62,583 nt of DNA from an uncultured Thermoplasmatales archaeon (GTDB lineage: Archaea; Thermoplasmatota; E2; UBA202; JdFR-43), in assembly GCA_965563795.1 (NCBI GenBank), contig CBEXJS010000001.1:1-62583 (forward strand), read 5' to 3'. The position numbers were made by a program, and so were the translations under genes. Positions 27,247 to 59,202 of this stretch are shown piece by piece. Under the pieces are notes generated by a model. It ran no database searches. It was given only the letters and a program-made list of their open reading frames with translations, and was not told the origin of the DNA. The stretch's first letter is position 1, and each line of letters opens with the position of its first letter.

Positions 27247-28665
27247 TCAATATTCTTTATAGATATAAGTAATCATTCCATTTTCTCCATTTATCTTTCC
27301 ATCAAAACTTATAAATGGTGCTTCATAAGCACCAACAAGGCGGTAACCAAATGCCCAACCTTTAACCAATTTGGAAAAACCTTCTATGCTACATGCCTTT
27401 TTTGCTTCTGAAAAAATACTAATTTCTTTCTCCTTATCATTTCCCTCCCATATGTCAAAAAGCGTGTCAGGATAGTAAATTTCTATGAAAGACAACTTAA
27501 ATGTGAAATTTTCGAAGTTATAATCTATAAATTTCTTGAAAATTTTCTCTGCATCTCCTATATCCATGATTTGATTTGGCAGACCTTCTATATTTTTTGG
27601 CAATTCCTCATAAGGAAAATACGGATTTATTTCTTCTGTTACAACAGGCATAGTTCCTTCTGTTACATTTAAAACAAACTCCTTTTTCAACCCTTTTTTA
27701 CCAAAATATAAAATCCATCCATAACCTTCTTTACTTTCCCAATATTCTGCATAAATGAGGTAAGAACCAGGATTATTCCTTAAAAAATTTTTCAAGCTTT
27801 GCTGTTTATAAGCAATGGCAATAGCTTCTCTTAAACTCATTTTCATCTGGCTTTCTCCTTGAGCTGGTCCTAAATCCTTCCATTCAGAAGAATTAAAGTT
27901 TCTTGATGAAGTGTAGTTCACGATTCCAAGCTTTAATTCTTTTCCTTTTCCTCTCTTGAAACTTTTCAAAACAAACGAATATGAATTCTTTCGATTTCCA
28001 TAATCTGTTTCAAATGTTATTTGATATGGAAATGAATAGCCATTTTTTATCCAGACATAAAGTCTGGAGGTATTAAATGGCACAACAATTTCCAATGCTT
28101 TTTGATTTTTATCATAGCTTGCTGTCCAGTTAAAAATTCTTCCTTCATAAACAAATGAGCCATTTGTATTTGGTTTAAATTCTTTCTGCAAAAAATTATC
28201 TAAAAAATCGTTTATTGGCATTGTATTAATCAAAATCTGTCTATCTCTATTAACAGCATGGTGGATGGTATTGCTTTTTATTATTCCTCCTAAAACATTA
28301 TTATCATAAATCCTATAAATGTGTTTTTCCAAGTTTATTGGCAATTCTTCAATTTCTCCTTCAGGAGTATAATTATAAGGTGTTTCTGATAAACTCATGT
28401 AAAATTCAATAGCTTTTATTTTTTTCCCAAAACCATCTTCAATTTGTGCATCTTTTATTTCTATTTTTGCCTCTCCCCTACTAACATAGATAAAAAAGCC
28501 TTCTTCTGTTTGCATGGTAGCTTTTCCAAAAAGCTCATAAGTGGCTTTGTCTCCTATTCTAAAAGCATCTGTTTCAAAAACATCTGGTATTTTCTCCTCT
28601 CCTCCTTTCTCAATGCATCCTGCAAGAAGTATTAGCACTATTAACAATACTATTTTATTCTTCAT
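27247..28665 (-). CDS. Lipoprotein of unknown function embedded in the que operon
   Basis: The track ORF extends to 28791 but overlaps queC. The internal ATG at 28665 gives MKNKIVLLIVLILLAGC, a signal peptide plus lipobox-like LAGC. The protein is 472 aa and I recognise no domain. Confidence 0.5.
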   Translation of the reverse strand: MKNKIVLLIVLILLAGCIEKGGEEKIPDVFETDAFRIGDKATYELFGKATMQTEEGFFIYVSRGEAKIEIKDAQIEDGFGKKIKAIEFYMSLSETPYNYTPEGEIEELPINLEKHIYRIYDNNVLGGIIKSNTIHHAVNRDRQILINTMPINDFLDNFLQKEFKPNTNGSFVYEGRIFNWTASYDKNQKALEIVVPFNTSRLYVWIKNGYSFPYQITFETDYGNRKNSYSFVLKSFKRGKGKELKLGIVNYTSSRNFNSSEWKDLGPAQGESQMKMSLREAIAIAYKQQSLKNFLRNNPGSYLIYAEYWESKEGYGWILYFGKKGLKKEFVLNVTEGTMPVVTEEINPYFPYEELPKNIEGLPNQIMDIGDAEKIFKKFIDYNFENFTFKLSFIEIYYPDTLFDIWEGNDKEKEISIFSEAKKACSIEGFSKLVKGWAFGYRLVGAYEAPFISFDGKINGENGMITYIYKEY

Positions 28666-29311
28666 ATTCAGTCGGATCCTCCACATTTGCCTCTTTAAAT
28701 GCTTTCTTCCTAAGCTTACAAGATGGGCATCTTCCACAATGTTTTTCTCCTTCCCTATAACAACTCCATGTTTTTTCAAATGGAACTCCAAGCTCTATCC
28801 CTTTCTTTACAATTTCTGCTTTTGAAAGATAAAGGAGAGGTGCTTTTATTTTTATTGGTCTTCCTTCTACGCTTCTTTTTAAAGCTAAATCTGCCATTTT
28901 TTGAAATGCCTCCAAATATTCTGGTCTACAATCTGGATAGCCTGAATAATCTATTGCATTTACTCCAATATAGATATAATCTGCATCAATAACTTCAGCA
29001 TAAGCTAAAGCAAATGATAAAAAGATGGTATTTCTTGCTGGAACGTAAGTTATAGGGATGCCATAAGTTTCTTCAGGCACCTCTATATTATCTGTTAAAG
29101 CGGAGCCACCTATTTGGCGGAGATTTACCTCCAAAATTTTATGTTTTGCATTAAGCCATTTTGCAATTTCTTTAGCTGACTCCATTTCTTTCTTGTTTCT
29201 TTGCCCATAGTTGAATGTGATGGCATAAATTTCATATCCTTCATTTTTTGCAATAGCTGCTGAAACGGCACTATCCATTCCTCCAGAAATCAAGCAGACT
29301 GCTTTTTCCAT
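28655..29311 (-). CDS. queC: 7-cyano-7-deazaguanine (preQ0) synthase
   Basis: Has the PP-loop SGGMDSAV and C-terminal zinc cysteines CGRCPSC. The track ORF starts at GTG 29320; the ATG at 29311 gives MEKAVCLISGG. Confidence 0.9.
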   Translation of the reverse strand: MEKAVCLISGGMDSAVSAAIAKNEGYEIYAITFNYGQRNKKEMESAKEIAKWLNAKHKILEVNLRQIGGSALTDNIEVPEETYGIPITYVPARNTIFLSFALAYAEVIDADYIYIGVNAIDYSGYPDCRPEYLEAFQKMADLALKRSVEGRPIKIKAPLLYLSKAEIVKKGIELGVPFEKTWSCYREGEKHCGRCPSCKLRKKAFKEANVEDPTEYEE

Positions 29312-33623: not shown

Positions 33624-34151
33624 TTAACTAACGTATCCAAGCTCTGTTAACTTACTCAAAACTTTTTCAACGCTTTCTTCAACGCTTTCTTTATCTGTTT
33701 CAACAACGATCTCTGGATTTTCTGGTTCTTCATATGGGTCATCTATGCCTGTAAATCCTTTTATTTCTCCATTTAAAGCTTTTTTATACATTCCCTTAAC
33801 ATCTCTTTGAATGCATGTATCTAATGATGCTTTAACATAAACTTCAATGAAATTCTTGCAAATGGAGCGAGCAAAATCTCTATTCTCTCTATACGGACTA
33901 ACAAAGCTACATAGCACTATTACACCACGCTCCGCCAACAACTTTGCCATTAAAGCAATATATCTCAAATGTTTGTTTCTTCCTTCTTTTGAAAAATCTT
34001 TGTTCCTAATATAGTCTCTAACTGTGTCTCCGTCAAGTAATTCAACGTCCTTGCCTTTTTCTTGCAATATTTCCATTAGTTTTTTTGCAATGGTTGTTTT
34101 GCCAGAGCAGGGCAAACCAGTAAACCAAACTACACATCCTCCTCCTTTCAT
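33624..34151 (-). CDS. cysC: Adenylylsulfate (APS) kinase
   Basis: Has the P-loop GLPCSGKTT and the typical LDGD motif. Length is 175 aa. Confidence 0.85.
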   Translation of the reverse strand: MKGGGCVVWFTGLPCSGKTTIAKKLMEILQEKGKDVELLDGDTVRDYIRNKDFSKEGRNKHLRYIALMAKLLAERGVIVLCSFVSPYRENRDFARSICKNFIEVYVKASLDTCIQRDVKGMYKKALNGEIKGFTGIDDPYEEPENPEIVVETDKESVEESVEKVLSKLTELGYVS

Positions 34152-35509
34152 TTTATCACCTTTCCTTCCATATGCAATGGGGCTTTAATTCCCAATTGAC
34201 TAAGCAATGTAGGAGCAAAATCATAAATGCTTACACCATCTAATTTTCCATTTCCTGGATACATTACAAAAACTCCAAATTTATCGTGAACAGCATCATC
34301 TGGTCCTGTATCATTTTTTTCTAGATGCACTTTTCCATGCCCAATTGTACCTGCAGAACGCCAGTATAAATCATCAAAATAAACCATAATATCTGGTGGG
34401 TTTCCTCTGCACTCTGGGTAAATTTCTTCGGGGGTAAAAACTTTATTAGCCATTTTATTTCCTCTATCATCCTTTGCATTCATCAACTCTTCCATTAATT
34501 CCTTTCGCACCTTCTCAAATTCTTCTCTGCTTATAATCCCATTTTCCTCTCTTCCTTTAACATTCAAAAACACCCTCGCATAGTATCCGCCCCATCCCCA
34601 AGCCTTTGTTTTACTCCAATCAATATTTGCTTTGTCCAAGCTGATAATATTTTTTGGTTCTTCTTTCAAAACGAGCCACCTCTTTTTTATAAGCCATTCA
34701 TTTATACAAAATGCTCCCTTCATTCTTTTCGCTCCATGATCAGATACAATAAAAATTTTTGTGTCTTCATCAACTATCTTGAGTAGCTCTCCCAGATTCT
34801 TATCTAAGAGTTTATAATAATCTCTTATAACATTTTTATATGGTGAGTTTGGCTCATATAGATGATGTTCTTTATCAAAATATCTCCAAAACGCATGCTG
34901 AACTCTATCTAATCCTATTTCAACAAACCAGAATAAATCCCATTCTTTATTTTCCATTAGATATTTAATGACTTCATGCCTTCTCTCTGTCATTTCCCAT
35001 AAATTTTTTACCAATGCATCTTTTTCATCTGTTCTGAATTCAACATCAAAAATATACTCTCCAACCAATCTTTCAATTTCCTTTTTTAGCTCTGGAGGAT
35101 AAGTATATTGTTTTTCTGCATCTGGTGTTATAAAACAAGATATCATACAGCCTTTCAAAGGCAAAGGAGGATATGATGGTGGTAAACCAATAATGCAACT
35201 TTTCTTCCCATATTTGGCTAAGATATCCCAAACTTTCGGATATTTTTTGAATTTTGTTGAATCTGCAATCCATATATCATTGTAACTATTTCCTTTTCTA
35301 TGCCTAAAACCATATATTCCATGTCTTCCTGGATTTACACTCGTTGCCATTACCATCCATGCTGGAATTGTTATAGGGGGATCACAACTTTCCATTGGAG
35401 CATATGTAGAGTTTTTTAGCAGTCTCTTAAAATTTGGCAAATCATCCAAAAATCTATTGAAAAGCAAATCTGGCACTGCACAATCCCATCCGATAACTAA
35501 TGCTCTCAT
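34148..35509 (-). CDS. Alkaline-phosphatase-superfamily enzyme (type I phosphodiesterase/nucleotide pyrophosphatase-like), substrate unknown
   Basis: Has an N-terminal metal-ligand context (VIGWDCAVPD), a nucleophile context (DPPITIPAW) and VSDHG. It overlaps both neighbours in the sat-cysC operon. Confidence 0.55.
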   Translation of the reverse strand: MRALVIGWDCAVPDLLFNRFLDDLPNFKRLLKNSTYAPMESCDPPITIPAWMVMATSVNPGRHGIYGFRHRKGNSYNDIWIADSTKFKKYPKVWDILAKYGKKSCIIGLPPSYPPLPLKGCMISCFITPDAEKQYTYPPELKKEIERLVGEYIFDVEFRTDEKDALVKNLWEMTERRHEVIKYLMENKEWDLFWFVEIGLDRVQHAFWRYFDKEHHLYEPNSPYKNVIRDYYKLLDKNLGELLKIVDEDTKIFIVSDHGAKRMKGAFCINEWLIKKRWLVLKEEPKNIISLDKANIDWSKTKAWGWGGYYARVFLNVKGREENGIISREEFEKVRKELMEELMNAKDDRGNKMANKVFTPEEIYPECRGNPPDIMVYFDDLYWRSAGTIGHGKVHLEKNDTGPDDAVHDKFGVFVMYPGNGKLDGVSIYDFAPTLLSQLGIKAPLHMEGKVIK

Positions 35510-36462
35510 TTTATCTTCTCCAATATTATTTCAACAAATTCTTCACATTCTTCCTTTGGCACAATTGCACCAACAACATTTTTCTTTCCACCAGCAACAT
35601 AACCTTTACTTTTAGCTAAATCTATTAAATGATAAACATCTTTACCTCTCACATATACCTGGCTATCTTTTTCAAAAAATTTATCATTTATGACAATAAC
35701 ATAATCATTTTTCTTCCATAACTCTCTTGCTACCGTCGATATTATATTGCATTTACTTTTGATTCTTTTTATTAAAATTCCATTTACTATTTCTTCTTCT
35801 GCTTCCAAAGCTTTCTTTATCTCTTCTTCAATTTTCTTCTTATTTTCATTCCATTTTTTATTGCTTATAATAAATTCTTTTTTATTTTCTGCATTTGCAA
35901 GAAGTTTGGGGGCGTTCTCTACTTCTTTTTTATCCCCTACTTTATAATTAGCATCAATTAACTTTACCATATCATGCATTTCCTCAAAGCTCAATCCGTT
36001 TTCTTCCATAAATTTTTCAAGTTTGCTATAAAATTTCGTATTCTTTATTCTCTCTTCCCAATCACCAACAACTCCAAGAAATGCAAGAAGGTTTTTTTGG
36101 CTTAAATAGTTTCCAACAACCCAGGAAGCAGATGGAAAATCTTCCTCACTTTTTCCTTCTATTATTGGATTTATGTATTCTACTCCACTTAATTTTTTTG
36201 TTAAATGGTGATCAAAAACTTTAATTTTTGCAATTTCTGTTAATCTTTTTAAGCTATTTTCATGCAATGCTAGGTCAACAATGTATATTTCCTCATATCC
36301 TTTCTTTTCTATTTGCTCAATTTCATCATCTGTCAAAAAATAATTTCCAATTGTTGGAGTCATTAAATCTATTCCATCTTTATAAAGTAATGATGCAGAA
36401 CAAATTCCATCTGTGTCCCAGTGATGCAAGATTAACATTTTACTCAACAAAAGGGTTTTCAT
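35506..36462 (-). CDS. DHH-family phosphoesterase (candidate pAp phosphatase / nanoRNase)
   Basis: Has motif I (HHWDTDG), motif II (DLA) and the DHH motif (VFDHH). An alternative ATG lies at 36438. Confidence 0.6.
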   Translation of the reverse strand: MKTLLLSKMLILHHWDTDGICSASLLYKDGIDLMTPTIGNYFLTDDEIEQIEKKGYEEIYIVDLALHENSLKRLTEIAKIKVFDHHLTKKLSGVEYINPIIEGKSEEDFPSASWVVGNYLSQKNLLAFLGVVGDWEERIKNTKFYSKLEKFMEENGLSFEEMHDMVKLIDANYKVGDKKEVENAPKLLANAENKKEFIISNKKWNENKKKIEEEIKKALEAEEEIVNGILIKRIKSKCNIISTVARELWKKNDYVIVINDKFFEKDSQVYVRGKDVYHLIDLAKSKGYVAGGKKNVVGAIVPKEECEEFVEIILEKIK

Positions 36463-37555
36463 AGCTCATGACAATCTCCGCCACTTCTTTCCTCATCATT
36501 GTTTCTGGCGGTATCTCTCCATTCTGGATCATCTTTCTTATTGCCGTCCCACTGTAATAAATGTGATGTTCCTTATCATGAGGACATATTTTTTCATTTA
36601 CTACACCCCCACATTTCTTACAATAGAAAAATGATTTGAAGAAAATTGGTGTAATACCTAAATCTGGAAATTCTCTAAATATTTCTTGAGCTTCATATGG
36701 TCCATAATAATTGCCTACTCCTGCATGGTCTCTGCCGACAATGAAATGAGTGCATCCAAAATTCTTTCTTACAATTGCATGAAATATTGCCTCTCTTGGC
36801 CCAGCATATCTCATTTCTGTTCTTAAAATTGCTAAGACGGCTCTATCCTTCAAATAGTAATGTTGAATTAAAGCATCATATGCTTTTAATATGACCTCAT
36901 CCTTAAAATCTCCTTTTTTCTTTTTACCTATAATTGGATTTATGAAAATTCCATCTACAAAAGTCAATGCTGTCTTCTGAACATATTCGTGTCCAAGATG
37001 AGGAACATTTCTTGTTTGAAATGCAACAATTTCTCTCCATCCTTTTTCTTTAAATAAAATTCTTGTCTCATAGGGCTTTAAGTAGTATTTCTCAAAGTTT
37101 TCTCTTCCTTCTTTAACTAATTCTATTTTTCCTCCCGCAAGTTTATTTTTCATATCCATTACTTTTTTAACTCCTGGATGCTGTATATCTGTTGTTTTAA
37201 ATACTTTTTCAGCATATTCTTTCTTATTATAATCATAGATTTCTTCTATAGCAAATGTTGCAAGCATTCCATTTTCTGCTTTAAGCAATACTTCATCTCC
37301 TTCTTTGAATTCATTTCCTTCTAAATCGAAGACAATTGGAATTGTCCATGGTAAATCATTTTGGAGGCGCATATGGTGCAAAACGTGCTCAAAGTCTTCT
37401 CTGCATAAAAATCCTTCTAATGGTGAAAAAACTCCGAAAGCAATGTTTTCTATATCATGGGCTAACTCTTTGCTTATTTCTATGCTATCCATGTCATCAA
37501 TGTCTTTGTTTCTATTTACTCTATATATGAGTTTTCCGCCGTGTGGAGCTGGCAT
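36440..37555 (-). CDS. sat: Sulfate adenylyltransferase (ATP sulfurylase)
   Basis: Has QTRNVPHLGHEY and VGRDHAG, plus a C-terminal zinc-ribbon-like CKKCGG...CPH. Length is 371 aa. Confidence 0.85.
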   Translation of the reverse strand: MPAPHGGKLIYRVNRNKDIDDMDSIEISKELAHDIENIAFGVFSPLEGFLCREDFEHVLHHMRLQNDLPWTIPIVFDLEGNEFKEGDEVLLKAENGMLATFAIEEIYDYNKKEYAEKVFKTTDIQHPGVKKVMDMKNKLAGGKIELVKEGRENFEKYYLKPYETRILFKEKGWREIVAFQTRNVPHLGHEYVQKTALTFVDGIFINPIIGKKKKGDFKDEVILKAYDALIQHYYLKDRAVLAILRTEMRYAGPREAIFHAIVRKNFGCTHFIVGRDHAGVGNYYGPYEAQEIFREFPDLGITPIFFKSFFYCKKCGGVVNEKICPHDKEHHIYYSGTAIRKMIQNGEIPPETMMRKEVAEIVMSYENPFVE

Positions 37556-37556
37556 T

Positions 37557-37796
37557 TTAATCTAAATAACCCAATGCCCTCAATCTTTCCTTTATTTTTT
37601 CCTCGTCTTCTTTGCTAAACACTTCTTCTTTCTCTTCCTCTTCCATGCTTGCTAAAAGCTCTCTCAACACATAAGTAACATAGCTGGATATTGAATTAAA
37701 TCCAGTTCCTTCTATCCTCTTCTTTATTTTCTCTGCTAAAGGAGTTGGTATAGAAACTGTCGTATATTTTCCTTTTTCTTCTTTTTCCTCTGCCAT
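37557..37796 (-). CDS. Ribbon-helix-helix (CopG family) DNA-binding protein
   Basis: The internal ATG at 37796 gives MAEEKEEKGKYTTVSIPTPLAEKIKK..., a beta-strand plus two helices. An acidic tail follows. Its stop lies 1 nt before the sat start. Confidence 0.55.
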   Translation of the reverse strand: MAEEKEEKGKYTTVSIPTPLAEKIKKRIEGTGFNSISSYVTYVLRELLASMEEEEKEEVFSKEDEEKIKERLRALGYLD

Positions 37797-37891
37797 GTTC
37801 CTGTAATTAAATATTATTATAAAAAGTTTTGTAAGATATGTTAGCAACTGTCAAAAATCATGAGAAGAAATATAAATATAAGAATTTTTAA

Positions 37892-38932
37892 ATGATTATG
37901 AAATGGTTGTCTATTGCCATTTCATTTTTCATGCTAAATACTCCAATCTGGTTTGTTGGAGAGAATTGGAATTACGATGTAGAAATAGGCATGGAAAAAA
38001 ATAACTCTAAAGGATTTTTTGAAATAAGAGATTTATTAATGGAGGTTATAGGGGAAAATGAGCAAACTTATCAAGTAAATATTAGTGGAAATGTAAATGG
38101 GCAGTTCATAATACATCGTTTTATAGATATTTTAGTCAGAGTCAGTGGGTCTCTGAAAGCTACTTTTTTCTTCAATAAAACAGATTTTTCTATAGTAAAT
38201 GGCTCAGTTATCACACAAGGTTCTATGACGATTATGGAAAGAAAAAAGAGTTATTACTTTGTGTTAAATATTTCCTTCAATCCACCATATAAAACGATAG
38301 ATTTTCCTTTAGAAATAAGAAAGAAATGGGTTTCAAAAACAAATATTTCTATGGAAGGAGAAATTTATGTAGAAGGCCTTGTTTCTCCTCCTGAAAAAAT
38401 AAATTATTCTAATTCTGCAACAACTGAATTTGAATGTGTCGGCTTAGAAAAAATAGAAATAAAAGCTGGAGAGTATGAAGCATATCATATTATAAGCAAA
38501 AATGCAGAGTTATGGTATGTTGAAGAAGTAAAAAACATGGCAAAACTAATCCTGCAAAATATTAAAATCAAGGAAACAAAATTTAATATCGAGATGGAGC
38601 TAACTAACTATCATTTAAAGAAAATAAATCCACCAAAAATAAAAATAATAAGACCAAAAAGAAACTACCTATATATTTTTGATAGAGAAATAATGGAAAT
38701 AAAAAATACAATTGTAATTGGCGATATCACTGTTAAGGCAGAAGGAAACGAAAATGTAACTAAAGTTGAATTTTATTTTAACAATAAATCATGCTTTGTT
38801 GACTATGAAATGCCTTATGAATGGAAATGCATGGAACCTGGCTTTGGATGGAGAGAAATAAAATGCATAGCATATGATATATATGGAAATGAAGCAGAAG
38901 ATACCTTAAAGGTAATTTATATAAATGAGTAA
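37892..38932 (+). CDS. Secreted/anchored protein of unknown function with a C-terminal Ig-like (Big_7-like) domain
   Basis: Has an N-terminal hydrophobic segment (MIMKWLSIAISFFMLNTPIW). The C-terminus reads VTKVEFYFNNKSCFVDYEMPYEW...REIKCIAYDIYGNEAEDTLKV. Confidence 0.4.
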   Translation: MIMKWLSIAISFFMLNTPIWFVGENWNYDVEIGMEKNNSKGFFEIRDLLMEVIGENEQTYQVNISGNVNGQFIIHRFIDILVRVSGSLKATFFFNKTDFSIVNGSVITQGSMTIMERKKSYYFVLNISFNPPYKTIDFPLEIRKKWVSKTNISMEGEIYVEGLVSPPEKINYSNSATTEFECVGLEKIEIKAGEYEAYHIISKNAELWYVEEVKNMAKLILQNIKIKETKFNIEMELTNYHLKKINPPKIKIIRPKRNYLYIFDREIMEIKNTIVIGDITVKAEGNENVTKVEFYFNNKSCFVDYEMPYEWKCMEPGFGWREIKCIAYDIYGNEAEDTLKVIYINE

Positions 38933-52440: not shown

Positions 52441-55400
52441 ATGAAAAAGTTGTTACTTATAATTGGGGTTTTGTTTCTAGTTGCCGTTACAATTCCACTT
52501 GGTTTAGAAGCAGAGCCAGCGCAAAATGCATCAGTTACAATAACATGGACAGATGGCAAGCATAACTATGAAAAAAATACTCTTACAGGTATAAATGGGT
52601 ATTATGAGTTTTCTTTGCCAGTGGGAAATGCAAATATATCTGCAGAATATAGTAAACAAAGAGGAAACGAATATATTACTGTAAGTAATTCAACAGGATA
52701 TTTTGTTGTAGATGGCACAGAATGGAAAAATATTACTCTGCCTGCTTCTCCAGAAGACACAGTTTTAATAAAAGGGCATGTATATGATAATAAAACTGGC
52801 ATGCCTATAGCAAATGCAAATGTGAGTGCTACATTTCATAATGATTTCTTCTATGGGTTTAATTTCACTTTTAGCGATGAAAATGGCTATTATGAATTAT
52901 GGGTTCCGGCATCAAATATAACTATTGGAGCAGTTGCAGGCGGATACTATTATGATGTAAAAATGCTAGGAACTGTTGGAGCTGGTGAAACAAGAAATGT
53001 TGATTTGTGTTTGGAACCATTGGTAGGCATTGTTAAGGGATATATTAAAGATAAGGACACTGCCTTGCCAATAAAAAATGCATATGTTATGATTTTTGGA
53101 AGAAATACATCTTTTGGAAATGTTACATTCAGCAATGATTCAGGCTATTATGAGTTTAGAGTAATTGAAGGAAATATGTCAGTAATGGTTGAAGCAAGTG
53201 ATTATTTTGATGCGATAATACCTCCATTTTATGTTGGGGTTGGAGAAACAAAATGGGTCAATATTACAATGACGCATTTTGTTGATGACAATGCGTGGGT
53301 GGTAGGGCGTGTTTTAGATAAGAATAACCAACCGATATCAAATGCAAACGTTAGTGTTGTTGGTTCTATCACTCTATTTGGAAAAATAGGTGATTTTGTA
53401 AGAGAAGGTAAAACAGATGCAATAGGTCATTACAACATTTCTGTTCCAGCATATGCATTGCCATATGGTATGACAACCATTTATTCTGTTGTAGCAGAAA
53501 AAGAAGGATATTTTGCAAATAGCACCTCAGGCACTATTCAAATCTTTCCAGGAGAAACAAAGTATATGGATGATATTTATCTTGAGCAGAAGCCACCAGA
53601 AAACTGCGTTGTTAAAGGATATGTTTATATAAAGTCAGTGCCAACTAAAAAAATACATTATGTTGGTGGTACTGGATCAGGAAACTACACAACTATACAA
53701 GAAGCAATAAATGCTGCAAGTGATGGCGACATAATAAAAGTTTATCCTGGCACGTACGATGGACCAATTGTTATAAACAAGGAAATAAAGCTTATCGGAG
53801 ACCCTGTCATAGATGGACATGGTGATTATGGAATAAAAATCGAAGCTAATAATACGCTTGTAGAGAATTTCACCGTGTTTAATTGTTCATATGGAATATA
53901 TGCTCGAAATCTCTCCTTCACATTGCATAACATTACCATAAGAAATTGTACAGTTTATGATTGTGAAAATTATGGCATTTGGATGCATTATGCCAACGAT
54001 GTATTTGTTGAAAATAACACCATATACAATGTTTCAATGGCAGGCATAGTCATATGGTATGCAAATGGTGGAGGTATTAAGAATAATGAGATATTTGACA
54101 GTGGAAATGCTTTGCCAATTTCAGGATGTAGCAATTTGGTAATTTCAGGCAATAAAATACATGATAATAGCGGTGATGGAATAAAGATAACTGGTAACTC
54201 AATACACAACAAAATAATAGCAAACCATGTTTATAACAATACAGGATATTATGGCGGAATTTATGTATACACAAGCCATTACAATGAAATAACTGATAAT
54301 CACATCTATAACAATACAAAATATGGAATATATATTGATGGCTCACATGACAATACAATCTCTCACAATTATGTATATAAGAATGGTTACGATGGCATCT
54401 ATCTAACGCAGGATGGCAATAATAACTCCATTTCCTCAAACCCAGTTTATAATAATTCACGGTACGGCATTATTGTATACGGTTCCAATAATACGATCAA
54501 TAATAATAGTATTCATCACAATCAAAACGGCATAGTCATTAAAGATACAGCAACGAATAATAACATAACGCTAAACAAAATGGAGAATAACAGCATATGC
54601 GGAATATATCTTATAGGAGATAGTAATACCGTAAAATCAAATTCTATGATATACAACGGTTATGGCATCCATATATTGGGAAGCAATAATACAATACTCT
54701 CCAATGAAATTGCAAATTGTAATCGTGGCGTATATGTTGGAGAGACAGCAAAAAACAATGAAATAAAAGATAATAACATACAAGATTCATCATCATATGA
54801 AATGCGTATTTATGGTCAAAACAATATATTCACAAATAATACAATCAATTCAACAAAGTTTTCATTTACCTATGGAGGCAATTTAACCATTAAAGATGCT
54901 TCTATGCCAGCATTGCCACCTCCTCACTGGCAGAGCATTGGCAAATTCTTGAAAATAGAAAAGTTGGATAGCAAGCCAGCATGGATGAACATAAGAATTT
55001 ATTATGATGATAGCGATGTTGTTGGCTTATATGAATTTACTCTTAAAATATGGAAATATGCCGGAAGTTGGCAAGAAGATGGATGGAATGGAACCCGTTA
55101 TCTGGATATGATAAACAACATTGTTGGTGTGAATATAACTTCATTCAGCATTTTTGCCCCTCTTGCCATGACACCAAATCATTTGCCTTATGCAACAAAT
55201 CCAAATCCTGTAAATGGAAGCACTGATGTTTCAACAAATCCAACTTTGAGCGTAGTTGTTCATGATGAAGATGGCGATACTTTAAATGTTTCATTCTATG
55301 ATGCTTCCAGTGATACTTTAATTGGCTATGTTGATGGTGTTTTGCCAGGAAATACAGCAAGCATAGTATGGAGTGGTTTGTCGCAAGGAACAACATATTA

Positions 55401-58400
55401 CTGGTATGTTATACTAAATGACAGTTATGAAGAAAATAAAAGCGATGTATGGCATTTCACAACAACACTTCCGAAGCCTACCGTCGTGTATGTAGATGAT
55501 GATTATGATAGCAGCACCTCAGGATGGGGATATGACCACTTTGCTAACATAACAGATGGAATAAATGGTGTGGCGAGTGGAGGTATAGTGTATGTTTATG
55601 AAGGAGTTTATGAAGAAAGTATAGGGATAAATAAGAAAGTGAGTATAATTTCATTGAATGGAACGGCAAATACAATAATAAAGGCAAGTGGGCAGAATGC
55701 GGTGACTATGAATTATCCATGCTTATTGGATGGCTTTACCATAAGAGATGCTCATGCAGATTATGACAATGTGAGAGGAATATGGGTTAAGGCAGATGGA
55801 TGTATAATAAAAAATGTAACCATAACAAATATTACTGCTATTCAAAATGAAAGCAAAGTCATATACACATATGGAATAATGATTAACTATGCTGACAACT
55901 GCATCATTGAAAATGTAACAATATACGACATAGAAGGAAATGACTCAACAGCATATGGAATATATGTGCATGAGTCAGACAATGATTCATTCAAGAACAT
56001 AACAATATTCAACATTACCTCTGTAAGCACTGCCTATGGAATGTATATTTCATATGGCGAAAACAGCGAGCTTGTTGGTATAAATATAGACAATGTAGAT
56101 GGAAGTAGCTCATATGGAATTCGCACTGGCTATGCAGACAATAATATCTTAAGATGGATAAATGTAATGGAGAGTAAGTATGGAATAGCCCTTGATTCTT
56201 ATAGTGATTACAACATCATTGAAAATTGTGTTGTTGCTAATAACACGCTCTATGGAATAATAATTGGCAGAGCTACATACAATATAATTAAAAATAATAA
56301 CGTGCATGACAACAGATATGGCATAACCTTATGGATAGATTGTTATAACAACACGATAGAAAATAATACCATTTTCAGTAATGATTATTATGGGGTATAT
56401 TTCTATTCAGAAAATATGCTCAATATAATAAAAGGGAATGTCATTTACAATAATCAATATGGCATTTATCTTAACGAGTTAGCAGGAAACAATACAATCT
56501 TTTCTAACTACATATATAATAATGCAGTTGATGGTATGAGGATTTATTCCGGTTACAACAATATCTCATTTAATCACGTTTACAATAATTCCAAATATGG
56601 CATCCTTATTTCCTCAGGTGAAAGCAACACAGTATATGCAAATTATATTCATGACAATGGAGAGGATGGTATAAGGATATCCAGTTATTCCTCAAATAAT
56701 ACAATCATTTCCAACAACATCTACAACAATTCAGATGATGGAATAAAGTTATATTATTATACAGACGGTAACATCATAAAGAACAATTATATCTACAACA
56801 ATTCAGATGGAATAGAAATAAGTTATAAGAATCATACAAACAATGTTATCCGTGGCAATTTCATCTATAACAACAGATATAATGGCATATTCTCTGATGC
56901 TATTGCCATAAATAACACCATCATGGACAATGAAATTTACGATAATGGAAACAATGGAATTTATATCAAAAGTGGTGGCAAATTTAATAGCATCCTAAAT
57001 TGCGACATTTATTCAAATGGATATTACGGTATAAGATTAGAAAACAGCATTAATAATACCATTTCAGACTGCAATATTTATTTAAATGGAGATGATGGCA
57101 TATTGATTTACAGCAATAGCAATAATAACAGCATTTCCAACTGCAATATCTATTCGAATAATGATTTTGGCATTTGGATTTCCACTTCAAGCAATTACAA
57201 TAATATCTCTGGTTGTAACATTCATTCAAACAAAAATACAGGCGTGGGCATGGGATTTTCTAGCATTCATAATGTAATCTACGATTGTAATATTTATGAC
57301 AACGGAGGAGATGGCGTTTATATCAGTTCATCAAATAATGTAATATCTGGTTGTAACATTTCAAATAACTATAGAGGAATAAATATACAGGCATCAAGCA
57401 ACGAAATCAAATCAAATTATATAACTGGAAATCAATACGGCATTTATATAGGCAGTGTGAATAACAACATCATTTACAACAACTACTTCAACAACACAAT
57501 AAACGCCTATGATGAAGGAAACAACATATGGAATATAAGCAAGACAGCTGGAACAAACATCATAGGCGGTGCATGGCTCGGCGGCAACTACTGGCATGAT
57601 TATGCTGGTAATGATACAGATGGAGATGATTTGGGCGATACAATGCTTCCATACAATTGCTCAGGCAATATTGCAAATGGTGGAGACTGGCATCCGTTGC
57701 TTGTGCCAACAAATCATCCGCCTGCTGTGCCATATAATCCAACACCTTCAGATGGAGCTACAGATGTTGAATTGGATGTAACATTGCAATGGCAATGCTA
57801 TGATCCAGATGGAGATGCTTTGAGTTATGACATATATTTTGGTTTGTCATCGTCTTCGCTGGAAAAGAAAGCAGGCAACATAACATCTGCTTCATACCCC
57901 ATAAGCAATCTTCAATATTCAACAACTTATTACTGGCGTGTAGTTGCATGGGATGAATATGGAGCTAAAAGCATTGGGCCGGTATGGAGCTTTACAACAA
58001 AAGAAGATACACCACCTGCAGTAAGCAATCCGCACCCTGCAAATGGAAGCACTGGCATAGCCATAAATCCGATACTTGCTGTTGATGTTGATGATGCTGA
58101 TGGAGATATGTTGACTGTAACATTTTATGATGCCTCTGATGACAGCGTTATAGGAATGGTAGAGAATGCTTCTCCTGGAAGTACAGTTAGCATAGTATGG
58201 CAAGGCTTACAGTATTCAACAACCTATTCATGGTATGTTATTGTAAGTGATGGTATTAAAAGTACAAAATCCCCAACATGGACTTTCACAACAAAAGCAA
58301 AGCCACAATACACTCTTACAGTTTCAGTAAATCCTGAAGGAGCGGGAATCATTTCAATGAATCCTGCTGGTGGAGTATATGAAGAAGGCACTATAGTTAC

Positions 58401-59202
58401 ATTGACTGCAATAGCAAATGAAGGATATGTTTTTGCTTACTGGAGTGGAGATGCTTCTGGAACAAATCCAACAATTCAAATTATAATGAATAGCAATAAG
58501 AATATTATAGCAAATTTCCAGTTGCCGAACACTCCGCCACAAATAGAAATTACAGAGCCAGAAAATGGAACAGTTGTTTCTGGCGTTTTAATGATACAGG
58601 GAAAAGCATGGGATATGGATGGAAATGATACTTTGCAAAAAGTAGAAATAAGAATAGATGGAGGAGAGTGGAAGGAGGCAGAGGGAACAACATTATGGAG
58701 TTATTCATGGGATACAACAAAAGTTGCAAATGGATGGCATACCATTGAAGCAAGAGCTTATGATGGAATAGATTATAGCAATATAGCAAAAATAACAGTA
58801 AATGTGCAAAATGTTGAAAATAATCCTCCAGAAATAGAAATTACAGAACCAATGAATGGAAGCGTTGTTAAAGGAAGCATTGTTGTTAAAGGAAAAGCAT
58901 GGGATAAAGATGGAAATGAAAGCTTAGTCAAAGTAGAAATAAGAATAGATGGAGGAGAATGGAAAGAAGCAACGGGAACAATAAATTGGGCTTATACATT
59001 GGATACAACTAAATTAAGCAATGGATGGCACACTATAGAAATAAGAGCCTATGATGGCATAGATTATAGCAATATAGCAACTACAAAGATAAATGTGCAA
59101 AATGAAAAAGAAGAAAAAGGCATGCCTTGGTTAATTATTGGGGTGGTAATAGTTATTATAGCAATAGTAGCAATAGCTGTGCTATATCTAAGGAAGAAGT
59201 AA
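52441..59202 (+). CDS. Giant (2253 aa) cell-surface protein built from CarboxypepD_reg-like, beta-helix, FN3-like, InlB B-repeat-like and Ig-like modules, with a C-terminal TM anchor
   Basis: Has a signal peptide (MKKLLLIIGVLFLVAVTIPLGLEA). From the N-terminus it carries CarboxypepD_reg-like repeats (G.V.D..TG.PI.NANVS...D.NGYYE), then two right-handed parallel beta-helix blocks. The beta-helix blocks show a 22-23 aa periodicity (N.I..N...GI.I..S..N.I). Three FN3-like modules, an InlB B-repeat-like module (YTLTVSVNPEGAG...GYVFAYWSGDASG) and two Ig-like modules follow. The C-terminus is MPWLIIGVVIVIIAIVAIAVLYLRKK. There are very many N-x-S/T sequons. Confidence 0.75.
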   Translation: MKKLLLIIGVLFLVAVTIPLGLEAEPAQNASVTITWTDGKHNYEKNTLTGINGYYEFSLPVGNANISAEYSKQRGNEYITVSNSTGYFVVDGTEWKNITLPASPEDTVLIKGHVYDNKTGMPIANANVSATFHNDFFYGFNFTFSDENGYYELWVPASNITIGAVAGGYYYDVKMLGTVGAGETRNVDLCLEPLVGIVKGYIKDKDTALPIKNAYVMIFGRNTSFGNVTFSNDSGYYEFRVIEGNMSVMVEASDYFDAIIPPFYVGVGETKWVNITMTHFVDDNAWVVGRVLDKNNQPISNANVSVVGSITLFGKIGDFVREGKTDAIGHYNISVPAYALPYGMTTIYSVVAEKEGYFANSTSGTIQIFPGETKYMDDIYLEQKPPENCVVKGYVYIKSVPTKKIHYVGGTGSGNYTTIQEAINAASDGDIIKVYPGTYDGPIVINKEIKLIGDPVIDGHGDYGIKIEANNTLVENFTVFNCSYGIYARNLSFTLHNITIRNCTVYDCENYGIWMHYANDVFVENNTIYNVSMAGIVIWYANGGGIKNNEIFDSGNALPISGCSNLVISGNKIHDNSGDGIKITGNSIHNKIIANHVYNNTGYYGGIYVYTSHYNEITDNHIYNNTKYGIYIDGSHDNTISHNYVYKNGYDGIYLTQDGNNNSISSNPVYNNSRYGIIVYGSNNTINNNSIHHNQNGIVIKDTATNNNITLNKMENNSICGIYLIGDSNTVKSNSMIYNGYGIHILGSNNTILSNEIANCNRGVYVGETAKNNEIKDNNIQDSSSYEMRIYGQNNIFTNNTINSTKFSFTYGGNLTIKDASMPALPPPHWQSIGKFLKIEKLDSKPAWMNIRIYYDDSDVVGLYEFTLKIWKYAGSWQEDGWNGTRYLDMINNIVGVNITSFSIFAPLAMTPNHLPYATNPNPVNGSTDVSTNPTLSVVVHDEDGDTLNVSFYDASSDTLIGYVDGVLPGNTASIVWSGLSQGTTYYWYVILNDSYEENKSDVWHFTTTLPKPTVVYVDDDYDSSTSGWGYDHFANITDGINGVASGGIVYVYEGVYEESIGINKKVSIISLNGTANTIIKASGQNAVTMNYPCLLDGFTIRDAHADYDNVRGIWVKADGCIIKNVTITNITAIQNESKVIYTYGIMINYADNCIIENVTIYDIEGNDSTAYGIYVHESDNDSFKNITIFNITSVSTAYGMYISYGENSELVGINIDNVDGSSSYGIRTGYADNNILRWINVMESKYGIALDSYSDYNIIENCVVANNTLYGIIIGRATYNIIKNNNVHDNRYGITLWIDCYNNTIENNTIFSNDYYGVYFYSENMLNIIKGNVIYNNQYGIYLNELAGNNTIFSNYIYNNAVDGMRIYSGYNNISFNHVYNNSKYGILISSGESNTVYANYIHDNGEDGIRISSYSSNNTIISNNIYNNSDDGIKLYYYTDGNIIKNNYIYNNSDGIEISYKNHTNNVIRGNFIYNNRYNGIFSDAIAINNTIMDNEIYDNGNNGIYIKSGGKFNSILNCDIYSNGYYGIRLENSINNTISDCNIYLNGDDGILIYSNSNNNSISNCNIYSNNDFGIWISTSSNYNNISGCNIHSNKNTGVGMGFSSIHNVIYDCNIYDNGGDGVYISSSNNVISGCNISNNYRGINIQASSNEIKSNYITGNQYGIYIGSVNNNIIYNNYFNNTINAYDEGNNIWNISKTAGTNIIGGAWLGGNYWHDYAGNDTDGDDLGDTMLPYNCSGNIANGGDWHPLLVPTNHPPAVPYNPTPSDGATDVELDVTLQWQCYDPDGDALSYDIYFGLSSSSLEKKAGNITSASYPISNLQYSTTYYWRVVAWDEYGAKSIGPVWSFTTKEDTPPAVSNPHPANGSTGIAINPILAVDVDDADGDMLTVTFYDASDDSVIGMVENASPGSTVSIVWQGLQYSTTYSWYVIVSDGIKSTKSPTWTFTTKAKPQYTLTVSVNPEGAGIISMNPAGGVYEEGTIVTLTAIANEGYVFAYWSGDASGTNPTIQIIMNSNKNIIANFQLPNTPPQIEITEPENGTVVSGVLMIQGKAWDMDGNDTLQKVEIRIDGGEWKEAEGTTLWSYSWDTTKVANGWHTIEARAYDGIDYSNIAKITVNVQNVENNPPEIEITEPMNGSVVKGSIVVKGKAWDKDGNESLVKVEIRIDGGEWKEATGTINWAYTLDTTKLSNGWHTIEIRAYDGIDYSNIATTKINVQNEKEEKGMPWLIIGVVIVIIAIVAIAVLYLRKK
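58534..59103 (+). repeat. Tandem duplication (2 x about 291 bp) inside the giant CDS, encoding two Ig-like modules
   Basis: Segment 58534-58824 and segment 58825-59103 align base by base with high identity (ccacaaatagaaattacagagcc... versus ccagaaatagaaattacagaacc...). Both end in aatgtgcaaaatg. Confidence 0.8.

Follow-up and report, generated by a model that had tools for sequence, protein, structure and literature searches.

The TON_1704-1707 cluster of Thermococcus onnurineus was reportedly the subject of Lee et al. 2009 (J Bacteriol 191:3415). The order of its genes is given as ATP sulfurylase (ATPS; TON_1707), 3'-phosphoadenosine 5'-phosphate (PAP, or pAp) phosphatase (TON_1706), a "pyrophosphatase" (TON_1705) and adenosine 5'-phosphosulfate (APS) kinase (TON_1704) (PMC4463584). 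In Pyrococcus yayanosii, the five genes pych_17520-17560 encode a CopG-like protein, an ATP sulfurylase, a DHH pAp phosphatase, a type I phosphodiesterase/nucleotide pyrophosphatase and an APS kinase (Jin et al. 2021, PMC8268124). The same cluster was listed for T. onnurineus, Ferroglobus, Aciduliprofundum, Aeropyrum and Ignicoccus, and according to the authors no recognised sulfite reductase or sulfotransferase is present in P. yayanosii (PMC8268124). In this work, we analyse a further instance of the module, in a stretch of 62,583 nucleotides from an uncultured Thermoplasmatales archaeon (contig CBEXJS010000001.1 of assembly GCA_965563795.1; the whole stretch is hereafter called the window). 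The same five genes are found here in the same order as in the Thermococcales; the cluster, its PAP phosphatase and the annotated "pyrophosphatase" are therefore already known, and it is the published role of the last of them that we question on comparative grounds.

Two other systems are close enough to be compared. Methanothermococcus thermolithotrophicus resembles the window in having stand-alone ATP sulfurylase and APS kinase (APSK) with a DHH-type PAP phosphatase in their genomic neighbourhood, but it adds an APS reductase-like enzyme that reduces 3'-phosphoadenosine 5'-phosphosulfate (PAPS), together with an F420-dependent sulfite reductase, and grows on sulfate (PMC10322725), and neither of these two enzymes is evident here. 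For methanogens that keep ATPS, APSK and the PAP phosphatase without growing on sulfate, a "non-canonical sulfo-transferase" was suggested (PMC10322725). In Halobacterium salinarum, deletion and heterologous expression identified Agl30 (VNG1056C) and Agl31 (VNG1057C), one of them cytosolic, as N-glycan sulfotransferases of the alkaline phosphatase (AP) superfamily (PMC11980604). They set an archaeal precedent for this fold serving in sulfotransfer, although their best structural matches are sulfatases and, as far as PMC11980604 says, they do not lie in a Sat/CysC operon. Haloferax Agl7 (HVO_2046), whose role in the sulfation of dolichol phosphate-linked hexose is confirmed in papers, was dropped as a comparison, its protein family not being stated.

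The reading that we prefer, with a probability of about 0.45, is that the operon of the window produces PAPS, spends it on sulfation and clears what is left over for reuse, and that its AP-superfamily member (hereafter simply AP) would be the step that spends PAPS. Several considerations add weight to such a role: AP changes places with a small canonical sulfotransferase among relatives; where Sat is not local, it is retained beside CysC and DHH or beside UDP-sugar genes; some genomes that carry it have no other recognised consumer; the module has a glycan context in other archaea; Agl30/31 offer a precedent; and a non-canonical sulfotransferase was explicitly called for by Jespersen and Wagner (PMC10322725). 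The genes and the promoter-like element are the following:

37814-37825, minus strand: TATA-box-like element TTTTTATAATAA, about 24 nucleotides upstream of the ATG at 37796 (direct sequence reading)
37557-37796, minus strand: small ribbon-helix-helix (RHH)-like open reading frame, first gene of the operon, 79 amino acids counted from the ATG
36440-37555, minus strand: Sat (ATP sulfurylase), 371 amino acids (open reading frame list)
35506-36462, minus strand: DHH phosphoesterase, 318 amino acids, or 310 if it starts at Met9 (coordinate 36438)
34148-35509, minus strand: AP, a protein of the AP superfamily resembling nucleotide pyrophosphatases/phosphodiesterases (NPPs), 453 amino acids (open reading frame list)
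33624-34151, minus strand: CysC (APS kinase), 175 amino acids (open reading frame list)

Layout of the operon and its recognised enzymes

The first-pass annotation, made from the letters of the window alone, had described five tightly packed, co-directional genes, and this layout is confirmed. A 1-nucleotide gap separates the RHH-like gene from Sat, Sat and DHH overlap by 23 nucleotides, and both AP/DHH and CysC/AP overlap by 4. If DHH starts at Met9, as does the PAP phosphatase of M. thermolithotrophicus (MtPAPP), the overlap of 23 nucleotides turns into a gap of 1. The small gene could also start at a TTG at 37847, giving 96 amino acids, but alignments of homologues support the ATG, which is therefore preferred. 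The element TTTTTATAATAA sits within the 95-bp divergent intergenic region and, judging from the usual archaeal promoter geometry, is likely to be the promoter of the operon, giving a leaderless or short-leader transcript. The gene order is kept unchanged in six relatives from two genera and the arrangement recurs in 80 loci, far beyond what chance would produce.

Strong homology makes Sat a putative ATP sulfurylase of the homo-oligomeric type, which would turn sulfate and ATP into APS and inorganic pyrophosphate (PPi). It matches ATP-sulfurylase (PF01747, 1.2e-95), PUA_2 (PF14306, 1.2e-43) and NF003166 (534 bits against a cut-off of 387), shows the HxxH (HLGH) and GRD (VGRDHAG) motifs, and is single-copy in the genome. 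Homology is equally strong for CysC as an APS kinase that would use ATP to turn APS into PAPS, releasing ADP: it matches APS_kinase (PF01583, 5e-58) and TIGR00455 (210.7 bits against a cut-off of 138.7), its P-loop reads GLPCSGKTT, and it is the only full-length, high-scoring match to an APS kinase in the genome. The family matches of the two proteins thus support the earlier proposal that together they make PAPS.

The DHH protein had been proposed as a pAp phosphatase by analogy, and the evidence now goes beyond that. Besides a match to PF01368 (6.9e-07), its residues 7-313 match MtPAPP (PDB 8A8K; phmmer E = 2.7e-39), and H14, D16, D18, D63, H85, H86 and D134 correspond to His6, Asp8, Asp10, Asp57, His76, His77 and Asp127, named as the Mn ligands of MtPAPP by Jespersen and Wagner 2023 (PMC10322725). 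Because the match covers the full length and every Mn ligand is kept, we place the protein in this characterised family; strong homology predicts a PAP phosphatase of the MtPAPP/PyapApase type, which would hydrolyse the inhibitory by-product PAP to AMP and inorganic phosphate.

The AP protein and the company it keeps

The only Pfam match of AP is to Phosphodiest (PF01663, type I phosphodiesterase/NPP; 6e-50, 171 bits). It does not belong to the canonical sulfotransferase families PF00685 and PF13469, and it has no match to PF00884 (sulfatase), a family found nowhere else in the genome either, though some AP orthologues carry a precomputed PF00884 match. Searched by sequence against PDB chains, AP gave no match, and a profile search gave only weak matches to NPP and to PhnA (phosphonoacetate hydrolase). 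We used an alignment-based AlphaFold (AF2) model with a pLDDT of 94.2, the single-sequence model having reached only 35. Its top Foldseek matches are ENPP1/3/5/6, the NPP of Xanthomonas (Xac NPP) and PhnA, with TMq of 0.54-0.60, 12-16% identity and a probability of 1.0. The Pfam family, the confident model and the NPP-clade folds all agree with the NPP-like character first noticed in the window.

That first assignment was based on a Thr-nucleophile context, here PPITIPAW with T47, and on a DHG motif, here D257-H258-G259. Both are present in AP and unchanged in 51 orthologues, and the profile alignment places them on Thr90 and Asp257-His258 of Xac NPP. In 51 orthologues D9, T47, D201, H205, D257, H258 and H408 are invariant, as are the motifs GxYGFRxR (64-71) and WGWGGYYAR (304-312). 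In the same kind of alignment F68/R69, within the invariant GFRHR motif, occupy the position of the phosphoryl-binding Asn111 of Xac NPP. No signal peptide was found in AP, which begins directly at the first metal-ligand strand. By its residues, then, AP is a catalytically intact, predicted cytoplasmic and divergent enzyme of the NPP type. It keeps the fold, the Thr nucleophile and the six Zn ligands of the NPP clade (Xac NPP, ENPP1/3/5/6), but at the low identity given above, with about 70 extra residues, in the cytoplasm and fixed in PAPS operons, and neither Asn111 nor the secreted or ecto location of the clade is found in it. The distance from the canonical PAPS sulfotransferases (Sulfotransfer_1, Sulfotransfer_3) is of another kind, because AP has a different fold without the 5'-phosphosulfate-binding (5'-PSB) and 3'-phosphate-binding (3'-PB) motifs; where those enzymes use in-line transfer, AP would need a covalent Thr intermediate or metal catalysis.

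These features suggest how AP, as the module's own cytoplasmic PAPS-spending enzyme, might work. Sat and CysC would supply PAPS, and Thr47, activated by Zn, would attack its sulfuryl group to form a sulfo-Thr intermediate. PAP would leave, held by the invariant Arg69 and Arg71 and by the bimetal site, and the sulfuryl group would be handed to a conserved acceptor hydroxyl, which probably belongs to a sugar or to one linked to a lipid or nucleotide. The DHH enzyme would then clear the PAP, and the pyrophosphatase activity reported for TON_1705 would be secondary or auxiliary. The module has a fixed partner in the small RHH-like protein, and a 372-amino-acid canonical sulfotransferase encoded elsewhere in the genome could also draw on the PAPS pool.

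AP has thousands of homologues, among which a tight group of orthologues at 50-63% identity spans archaeal phyla (Asgard lineages, Bathyarchaeia, Nitrososphaeria, Hydrothermarchaeota, Archaeoglobi, Thermococci, Methanocaldococcus and DHVE2) and several bacterial groups (Aminicenantes, Anaerolineae, Desulfotomaculum and Paenibacillus). We searched 80 AP loci from many archaeal and bacterial phyla with the five proteins of the window (tblastn) and found colinear, same-strand modules in which AP is accompanied by CysC in 63 loci, by the RHH-like gene in 58, by Sat in 53 and by DHH in 18. The conservation of AP beside sat and cysC extends to hundreds of species. Where CysC is not local it is encoded elsewhere in 12 of 13 genomes. 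The loci examined in Archaeoglobaceae and Archaeoglobus sulfaticallidus have the order RHH-DHH-AP-CysC with Sat not local, and several loci from bacterial metagenome-assembled genomes (MAGs) read RHH-AP-epimerase-UDP-glucose dehydrogenase, with neither Sat nor CysC nearby. In A. sulfaticallidus (CP005290.1, locus L146:4656-6062) an IS605 OrfB (TnpB-like) gene is inserted between the RHH-like and DHH genes.

AP is also found fused to CysC, as a protein of 646 amino acids in a Nitrosopumilaceae MAG (L052:5260-7200, plus strand) and, with a low-complexity linker, as one of 777 amino acids in Desulfotomaculum copahuensis (L074:7992-10325, plus strand). We give the fusion little weight, since it fits a transferase as well as a pyrophosphatase. 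Open frames of 550-670 amino acids were seen at AP matches in three genomes of the phylum (G120, G259, G287). The genome of the window encodes a paralogue of AP with 471 amino acids (contig C38, 10754-12169, minus strand; L144:6755-8170), 27-30% identical to it and matching PF01663 at 3.6e-29; its neighbours, a BNR-repeat protein, a thrombospondin-repeat protein and a PAS histidine kinase, are uninformative. The family has many such paralogues, of 470-545 amino acids, and those of P. yayanosii and Methanocaldococcus adjoin genes of glycosyltransferase family 2 (GT2).

In P. yayanosii and Methanocaldococcus bathoardescens the module itself lies within a glycan island with a TauE permease, a flippase, the AP paralogue, GT2 glycosyltransferases and a DegT aminotransferase. 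The island is syntenic between these members of the Thermococcales (CP002779.1, L143) and Methanococcales (CP009149.1, L145), and this synteny, together with AP proteins 84-92% identical to the copy in a Thermococcus MAG, points to a recent lateral transfer of a sulfated-glycan island.

A different role for AP would be that of a sulfonucleotide hydrolase, either a PAPS/APS sulfohydrolase of the NPP type, which would attack the 5'-phosphate and expel sulfate, or a 3'-phosphatase, in both cases buffering a toxic pool of PAPS, APS and PAP. NPPs hydrolyse nucleotide phosphoanhydrides, sulfonucleotides included, and AP has the NPP fold and catalytic set. Its tight linkage and occasional fusion to CysC would suit such a role, and in 62 of the 80 loci the operon has no DHH PAP phosphatase. 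Why two domains should keep a futile hydrolase fixed in a synthesis operon is nevertheless hard to rationalise, the DHH enzyme, where present, already takes care of PAP, and the exchange with a sulfotransferase described below would be left unexplained. We therefore regard this role as improbable.

Exchange with a small sulfotransferase and the fate of PAPS

The genome of the window (1.46 Mb in 81 contigs, 95% complete) was compared with those of 41 relatives, among which the AP orthologue is confined to genus g1 and part of genus g3. In relatives without it, the operon runs RHH-Sat-DHH-X-CysC or DHH-CysC-X, X being a protein of 184-187 amino acids that passes the Pfam thresholds of Sulfotransfer_1 and Sulfotransfer_3 and has a 5'-PSB-like motif (ERSGTS) and a 3'-PB-like one (RNxDExxDS). 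Genus g3 contains both versions, with AP in G012, G020 and G022 and X in G005 and G017. An even sample of 301 genomes of the phylum gave 19 with AP only, 65 with X only and none with both, where about four with both would be expected by chance (hypergeometric P ~0.008, uncorrected for kinship). Of 30 X loci, 28 place X beside CysC, DHH or Sat, one further locus has RHH-X, mirroring RHH-AP, and X was not found in any of the 80 AP loci nor in the genome of the window. As a family, X (184-200 amino acids; examples are L124:6068-6631, minus strand, and L128:5379-5933, plus strand) is single-copy, almost always inside a Sat-DHH-CysC operon, and unusually small for a sulfotransferase. This pattern looks like the non-orthologous displacement of one PAPS consumer by another. 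The exchange is new here and, as a comparative pattern, strengthens the case for a transferase.

Among 50 genomes of many phyla that carry AP, 19 have PF13469 or PF00685, 15 have the sulfite reductase family NIR_SIR and 20 have neither, a last count weakened by the incompleteness of MAGs and by the search having covered only two sulfotransferase Pfam families. Six of the 20 carry a PAP phosphatase in the operon, and in these there would therefore be a PAP-releasing reaction with no recognised enzyme except AP. Methanocaldococcus carries the module, and the AP gene is a candidate for the non-canonical sulfotransferase suggested for methanogens.

The serious rival is that AP is a dedicated inorganic pyrophosphatase, which removes the PPi made by Sat and so pulls the unfavourable activation of sulfate, while DHH clears PAP and PAPS is spent elsewhere, here by the canonical sulfotransferase on contig C3. 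It is the sole reading backed by biochemistry, and we still consider it rather unlikely. The first-pass annotation had called AP the unexplained member of the operon, which overlooks that its counterpart TON_1705 was already characterised and published as an inorganic pyrophosphatase; PYCH_17550 was read likewise (Jin et al. 2021). AP is 56% identical over its full length to PYCH_17550, whose gene order in CP002779.1 is the same, and TON_1705 was equated with them through gene order, the sequence comparison being with PYCH_17550. TON_1705 has a Km of 18.8 uM and a kcat of 2.1 s-1 (PMC9653972, Table 1), with a pH optimum of 9.5 (PMC4463584; PMC9653972). The housekeeping pyrophosphatase of the same organism, Ton1914, reaches a kcat of about 3e4 s-1, some 1e4 times that of TON_1705 (PMC9653972), which speaks against PPi as the dedicated substrate. 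On the side of a pyrophosphatase, the bimetal site and the Thr nucleophile of AP are intact, its extra invariant arginines could bind a second phosphate, its very high conservation fits a universal small substrate, and Sat is adjacent to AP in 53 of the 80 loci. Enzymes of the AP superfamily are, on the other hand, notoriously promiscuous. A dedicated pyrophosphatase would have no reason to exclude a sulfotransferase from its operon, nor to remain beside CysC and DHH when, as in Archaeoglobaceae, Sat is encoded elsewhere, or beside UDP-sugar genes where Sat and CysC are not local.

The supply of other pyrophosphatases bears on the same question. Neither family I nor family II soluble pyrophosphatase was detected in the genome of the window, as would suit a pyrophosphatase in the operon, but a membrane H+/Na+-translocating pyrophosphatase is encoded on contig C8 (32150-34063, plus strand). 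Soluble family I pyrophosphatase was not detected in 38 of the 41 relatives either, and sister genomes run a Sat-DHH-CysC operon with neither AP nor a soluble pyrophosphatase, presumably by means of the membrane H+-pyrophosphatase. Since the soluble enzyme is missing in the order regardless of AP and the membrane one is present, AP is not required for Sat to run there. The idea that AP compensates for a missing soluble pyrophosphatase was rejected as non-discriminating, nearly the whole order being without PF00719, with or without AP. Genus g2 alone has a soluble pyrophosphatase, and it alone lacks the PAPS genes.

Several further points weigh against AP as the enzyme that spends PAPS. To our knowledge, an NPP-fold enzyme with a Thr nucleophile has never been shown to act as a sulfotransferase, and our literature search found no paper on a PAPS sulfotransferase of the AP superfamily in archaea. 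An identity of 50-63% across two domains suits a small universal substrate better than an acceptor-specific transferase, and the fusion with CysC and the adjacency to Sat would also follow from a logic of removing both ATPS products. Few independent events underlie the mutual exclusivity of AP and X. In the window the operon has no glycan genes at its sides, where housekeeping genes and sequon-rich putative surface proteins lie, and no TauE was found in this genome, which sets it apart from the copies of the Thermococcales and Methanocaldococcus in their glycan island. The only biochemistry on the AP family is the hydrolysis of PPi by TON_1705, with a respectable kcat/Km of about 1e5 M-1 s-1 (PMC9653972), and the Agl30/31 precedent is sulfatase-like (PF00884) rather than NPP-like (PMC11980604). 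Finally, the canonical sulfotransferase of the genome could consume all the PAPS, and for this reason AP need not be the transferase.

That canonical enzyme is a Sulfotransfer_3 protein of 372 amino acids (contig C3, 7256-8374, plus strand; L122:7256-8374), a possible second consumer of PAPS in the genome, and adjoins a gene of the GH92 alpha-mannosidase family and two AMP-binding (phenylacetate-CoA-ligase-like) genes. Its presence elsewhere in the genome fits both the rival reading of a pyrophosphatase in the operon and a use of PAPS in sulfation.

Whichever enzyme spends it, sulfation and not assimilation is favoured as the evident use of PAPS here, because no sulfite reductase was found and a canonical sulfotransferase is encoded elsewhere. 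This was also the direction taken by the first-pass annotation, which had noted that the window contains no APS/PAPS reductase or sulfite reductase, as we confirm, and had called for the whole genome to be checked; no NIR_SIR protein was found in the 95%-complete genome. Among the relatives, APS kinase is found at E <= 1e-33 in 34 of 41 and canonical sulfotransferases in 37 of 41. Methyl-coenzyme M reductase was not found in the genome, so the organism is not considered a methanogen.

An operon serving assimilatory sulfate reduction as in M. thermolithotrophicus, by means of a PAPS_reduct protein and an unrecognised sulfite reductase, appears very improbable in this context. Two proteins of the PRK13795 class, with PAPS_reduct and 2x[4Fe-4S] ferredoxin domains, are indeed encoded (contig C28, 10191-11912, minus strand; contig C3, 15467-17050, plus strand), the thioredoxin-dependent PAPS and APS reductases of Methanocaldococcus jannaschii are reported to reduce PAPS and APS (cited in PMC10322725), and at 95% completeness a sulfite reductase gene could have remained unassembled. 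However, NIR_SIR occurs in only 15 of the 50 AP-bearing genomes, the lineage is rich in sulfotransferases, and the sulfate-reducing Archaeoglobi keep the module though they make sulfide anyway. The PAPS_reduct proteins are not linked to CysC. The longer one, on C28, has an N-terminal PUA domain, which was not detected on that of C3, and is found in 39 of the 41 relatives irrespective of CysC, including genus g2, in which no high-scoring APS kinase match and no sulfotransferase were found. This distribution, independent of CysC, indicates that the PAPS_reduct proteins are unrelated to sulfate activation, and on these grounds the PUA-bearing type was rejected as an assimilatory reductase. Its PUA domain suggests work on RNA, and the C28 protein is more probably an enzyme of RNA modification than one that reduces PAPS.

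The small RHH-like protein, the surroundings and archaeal sulfation

The small protein is predicted to consist of an N-terminal beta-strand and two helices (TVSIPTPLAEKIKKRIEGTGFNSISSYVTYVLRELL), an acidic linker and a C-terminal RLRALGYLD motif, in which L72, L75, G76 and Y77 are invariant (L-x-x-LGY). It had been called an RHH regulator. The small gene is found upstream of the module in 58 of the 80 loci, bacteria included, at 40-94% identity. Among archaeal phyla, proteins of this kind (70-80 amino acids) are up to 82-94% identical, and in bacteria about 50-65%. The RHH label is insecure, its matches being sub-threshold, though the pattern of the sequence would suit it. No significant Pfam or NCBIfam family was found, RHH_1 gave E = 0.047 (14.1 bits against a cut-off of 20.5), a profile search against the RHH domain of NikR gave E ~0.4-0.5, and an RHH match was obtained for 4 of 24 members, at best with E = 0.0066. 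Its P. yayanosii counterpart carries the annotation of a putative CopG factor (PMC8268124). A candidate transcriptional regulator of the module is the simplest reading. Its conservation, however, exceeds that of an ordinary lineage-specific repressor and the RHH-AP and RHH-X pairs recur, so that the protein may also contact a protein partner.

The first-pass annotation had further suggested that the sulfated target could be a surface glycan, many sequon-rich surface proteins being encoded nearby. The sequon-rich neighbours are there. The divergent neighbour of the operon (37892-38932, plus strand) encodes 346 amino acids with 26 sequons per 1000 amino acids, an N-terminal hydrophobic segment and a Big_7 Ig-like match, and a protein of 2253 amino acids (52441-59202, plus strand) has 79 N-x-S/T sequons, or 35 per 1000, against 0-5 per 1000 in the cytoplasmic proteins of the window. 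Both are likely to be heavily N-glycosylated surface proteins, judging from their composition. Another candidate surface protein lies at 27247-28791 (minus strand). A glycan gene context of the kind that surrounds the module in Methanocaldococcus and P. yayanosii is not seen around the operon here.

Chemical evidence for PAPS-dependent sulfation in archaea exists in the form of sulfated N-glycans and glycolipids, yet its enzymes are almost a blank, and PAPS synthesis is kept without a known consumer in many archaea (Asgard lineages, Bathyarchaeia, Thermococcales, Methanocaldococcus and Archaeoglobi). Tentatively, and at somewhat less than even odds, AP may found a new structural and mechanistic class of PAPS-dependent sulfotransferase, metal-assisted and with a Thr-sulfuryl intermediate, that hundreds of species, archaeal and bacterial, keep fixed in their PAPS operons and that is exchangeable in evolution with a minimal canonical sulfotransferase. 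It would then be the postulated non-canonical sulfotransferase of methanogens and Thermococcales, and its pyrophosphatase label would reflect a promiscuous side activity. If AP is only a pyrophosphatase, the operon is an ordinary one and the consumer of PAPS is to be sought elsewhere. If AP does consume PAPS, a gap in archaeal sulfation would be closed, the AP superfamily would gain a new catalytic solution for sulfuryl transfer, and a widespread annotation would be corrected.

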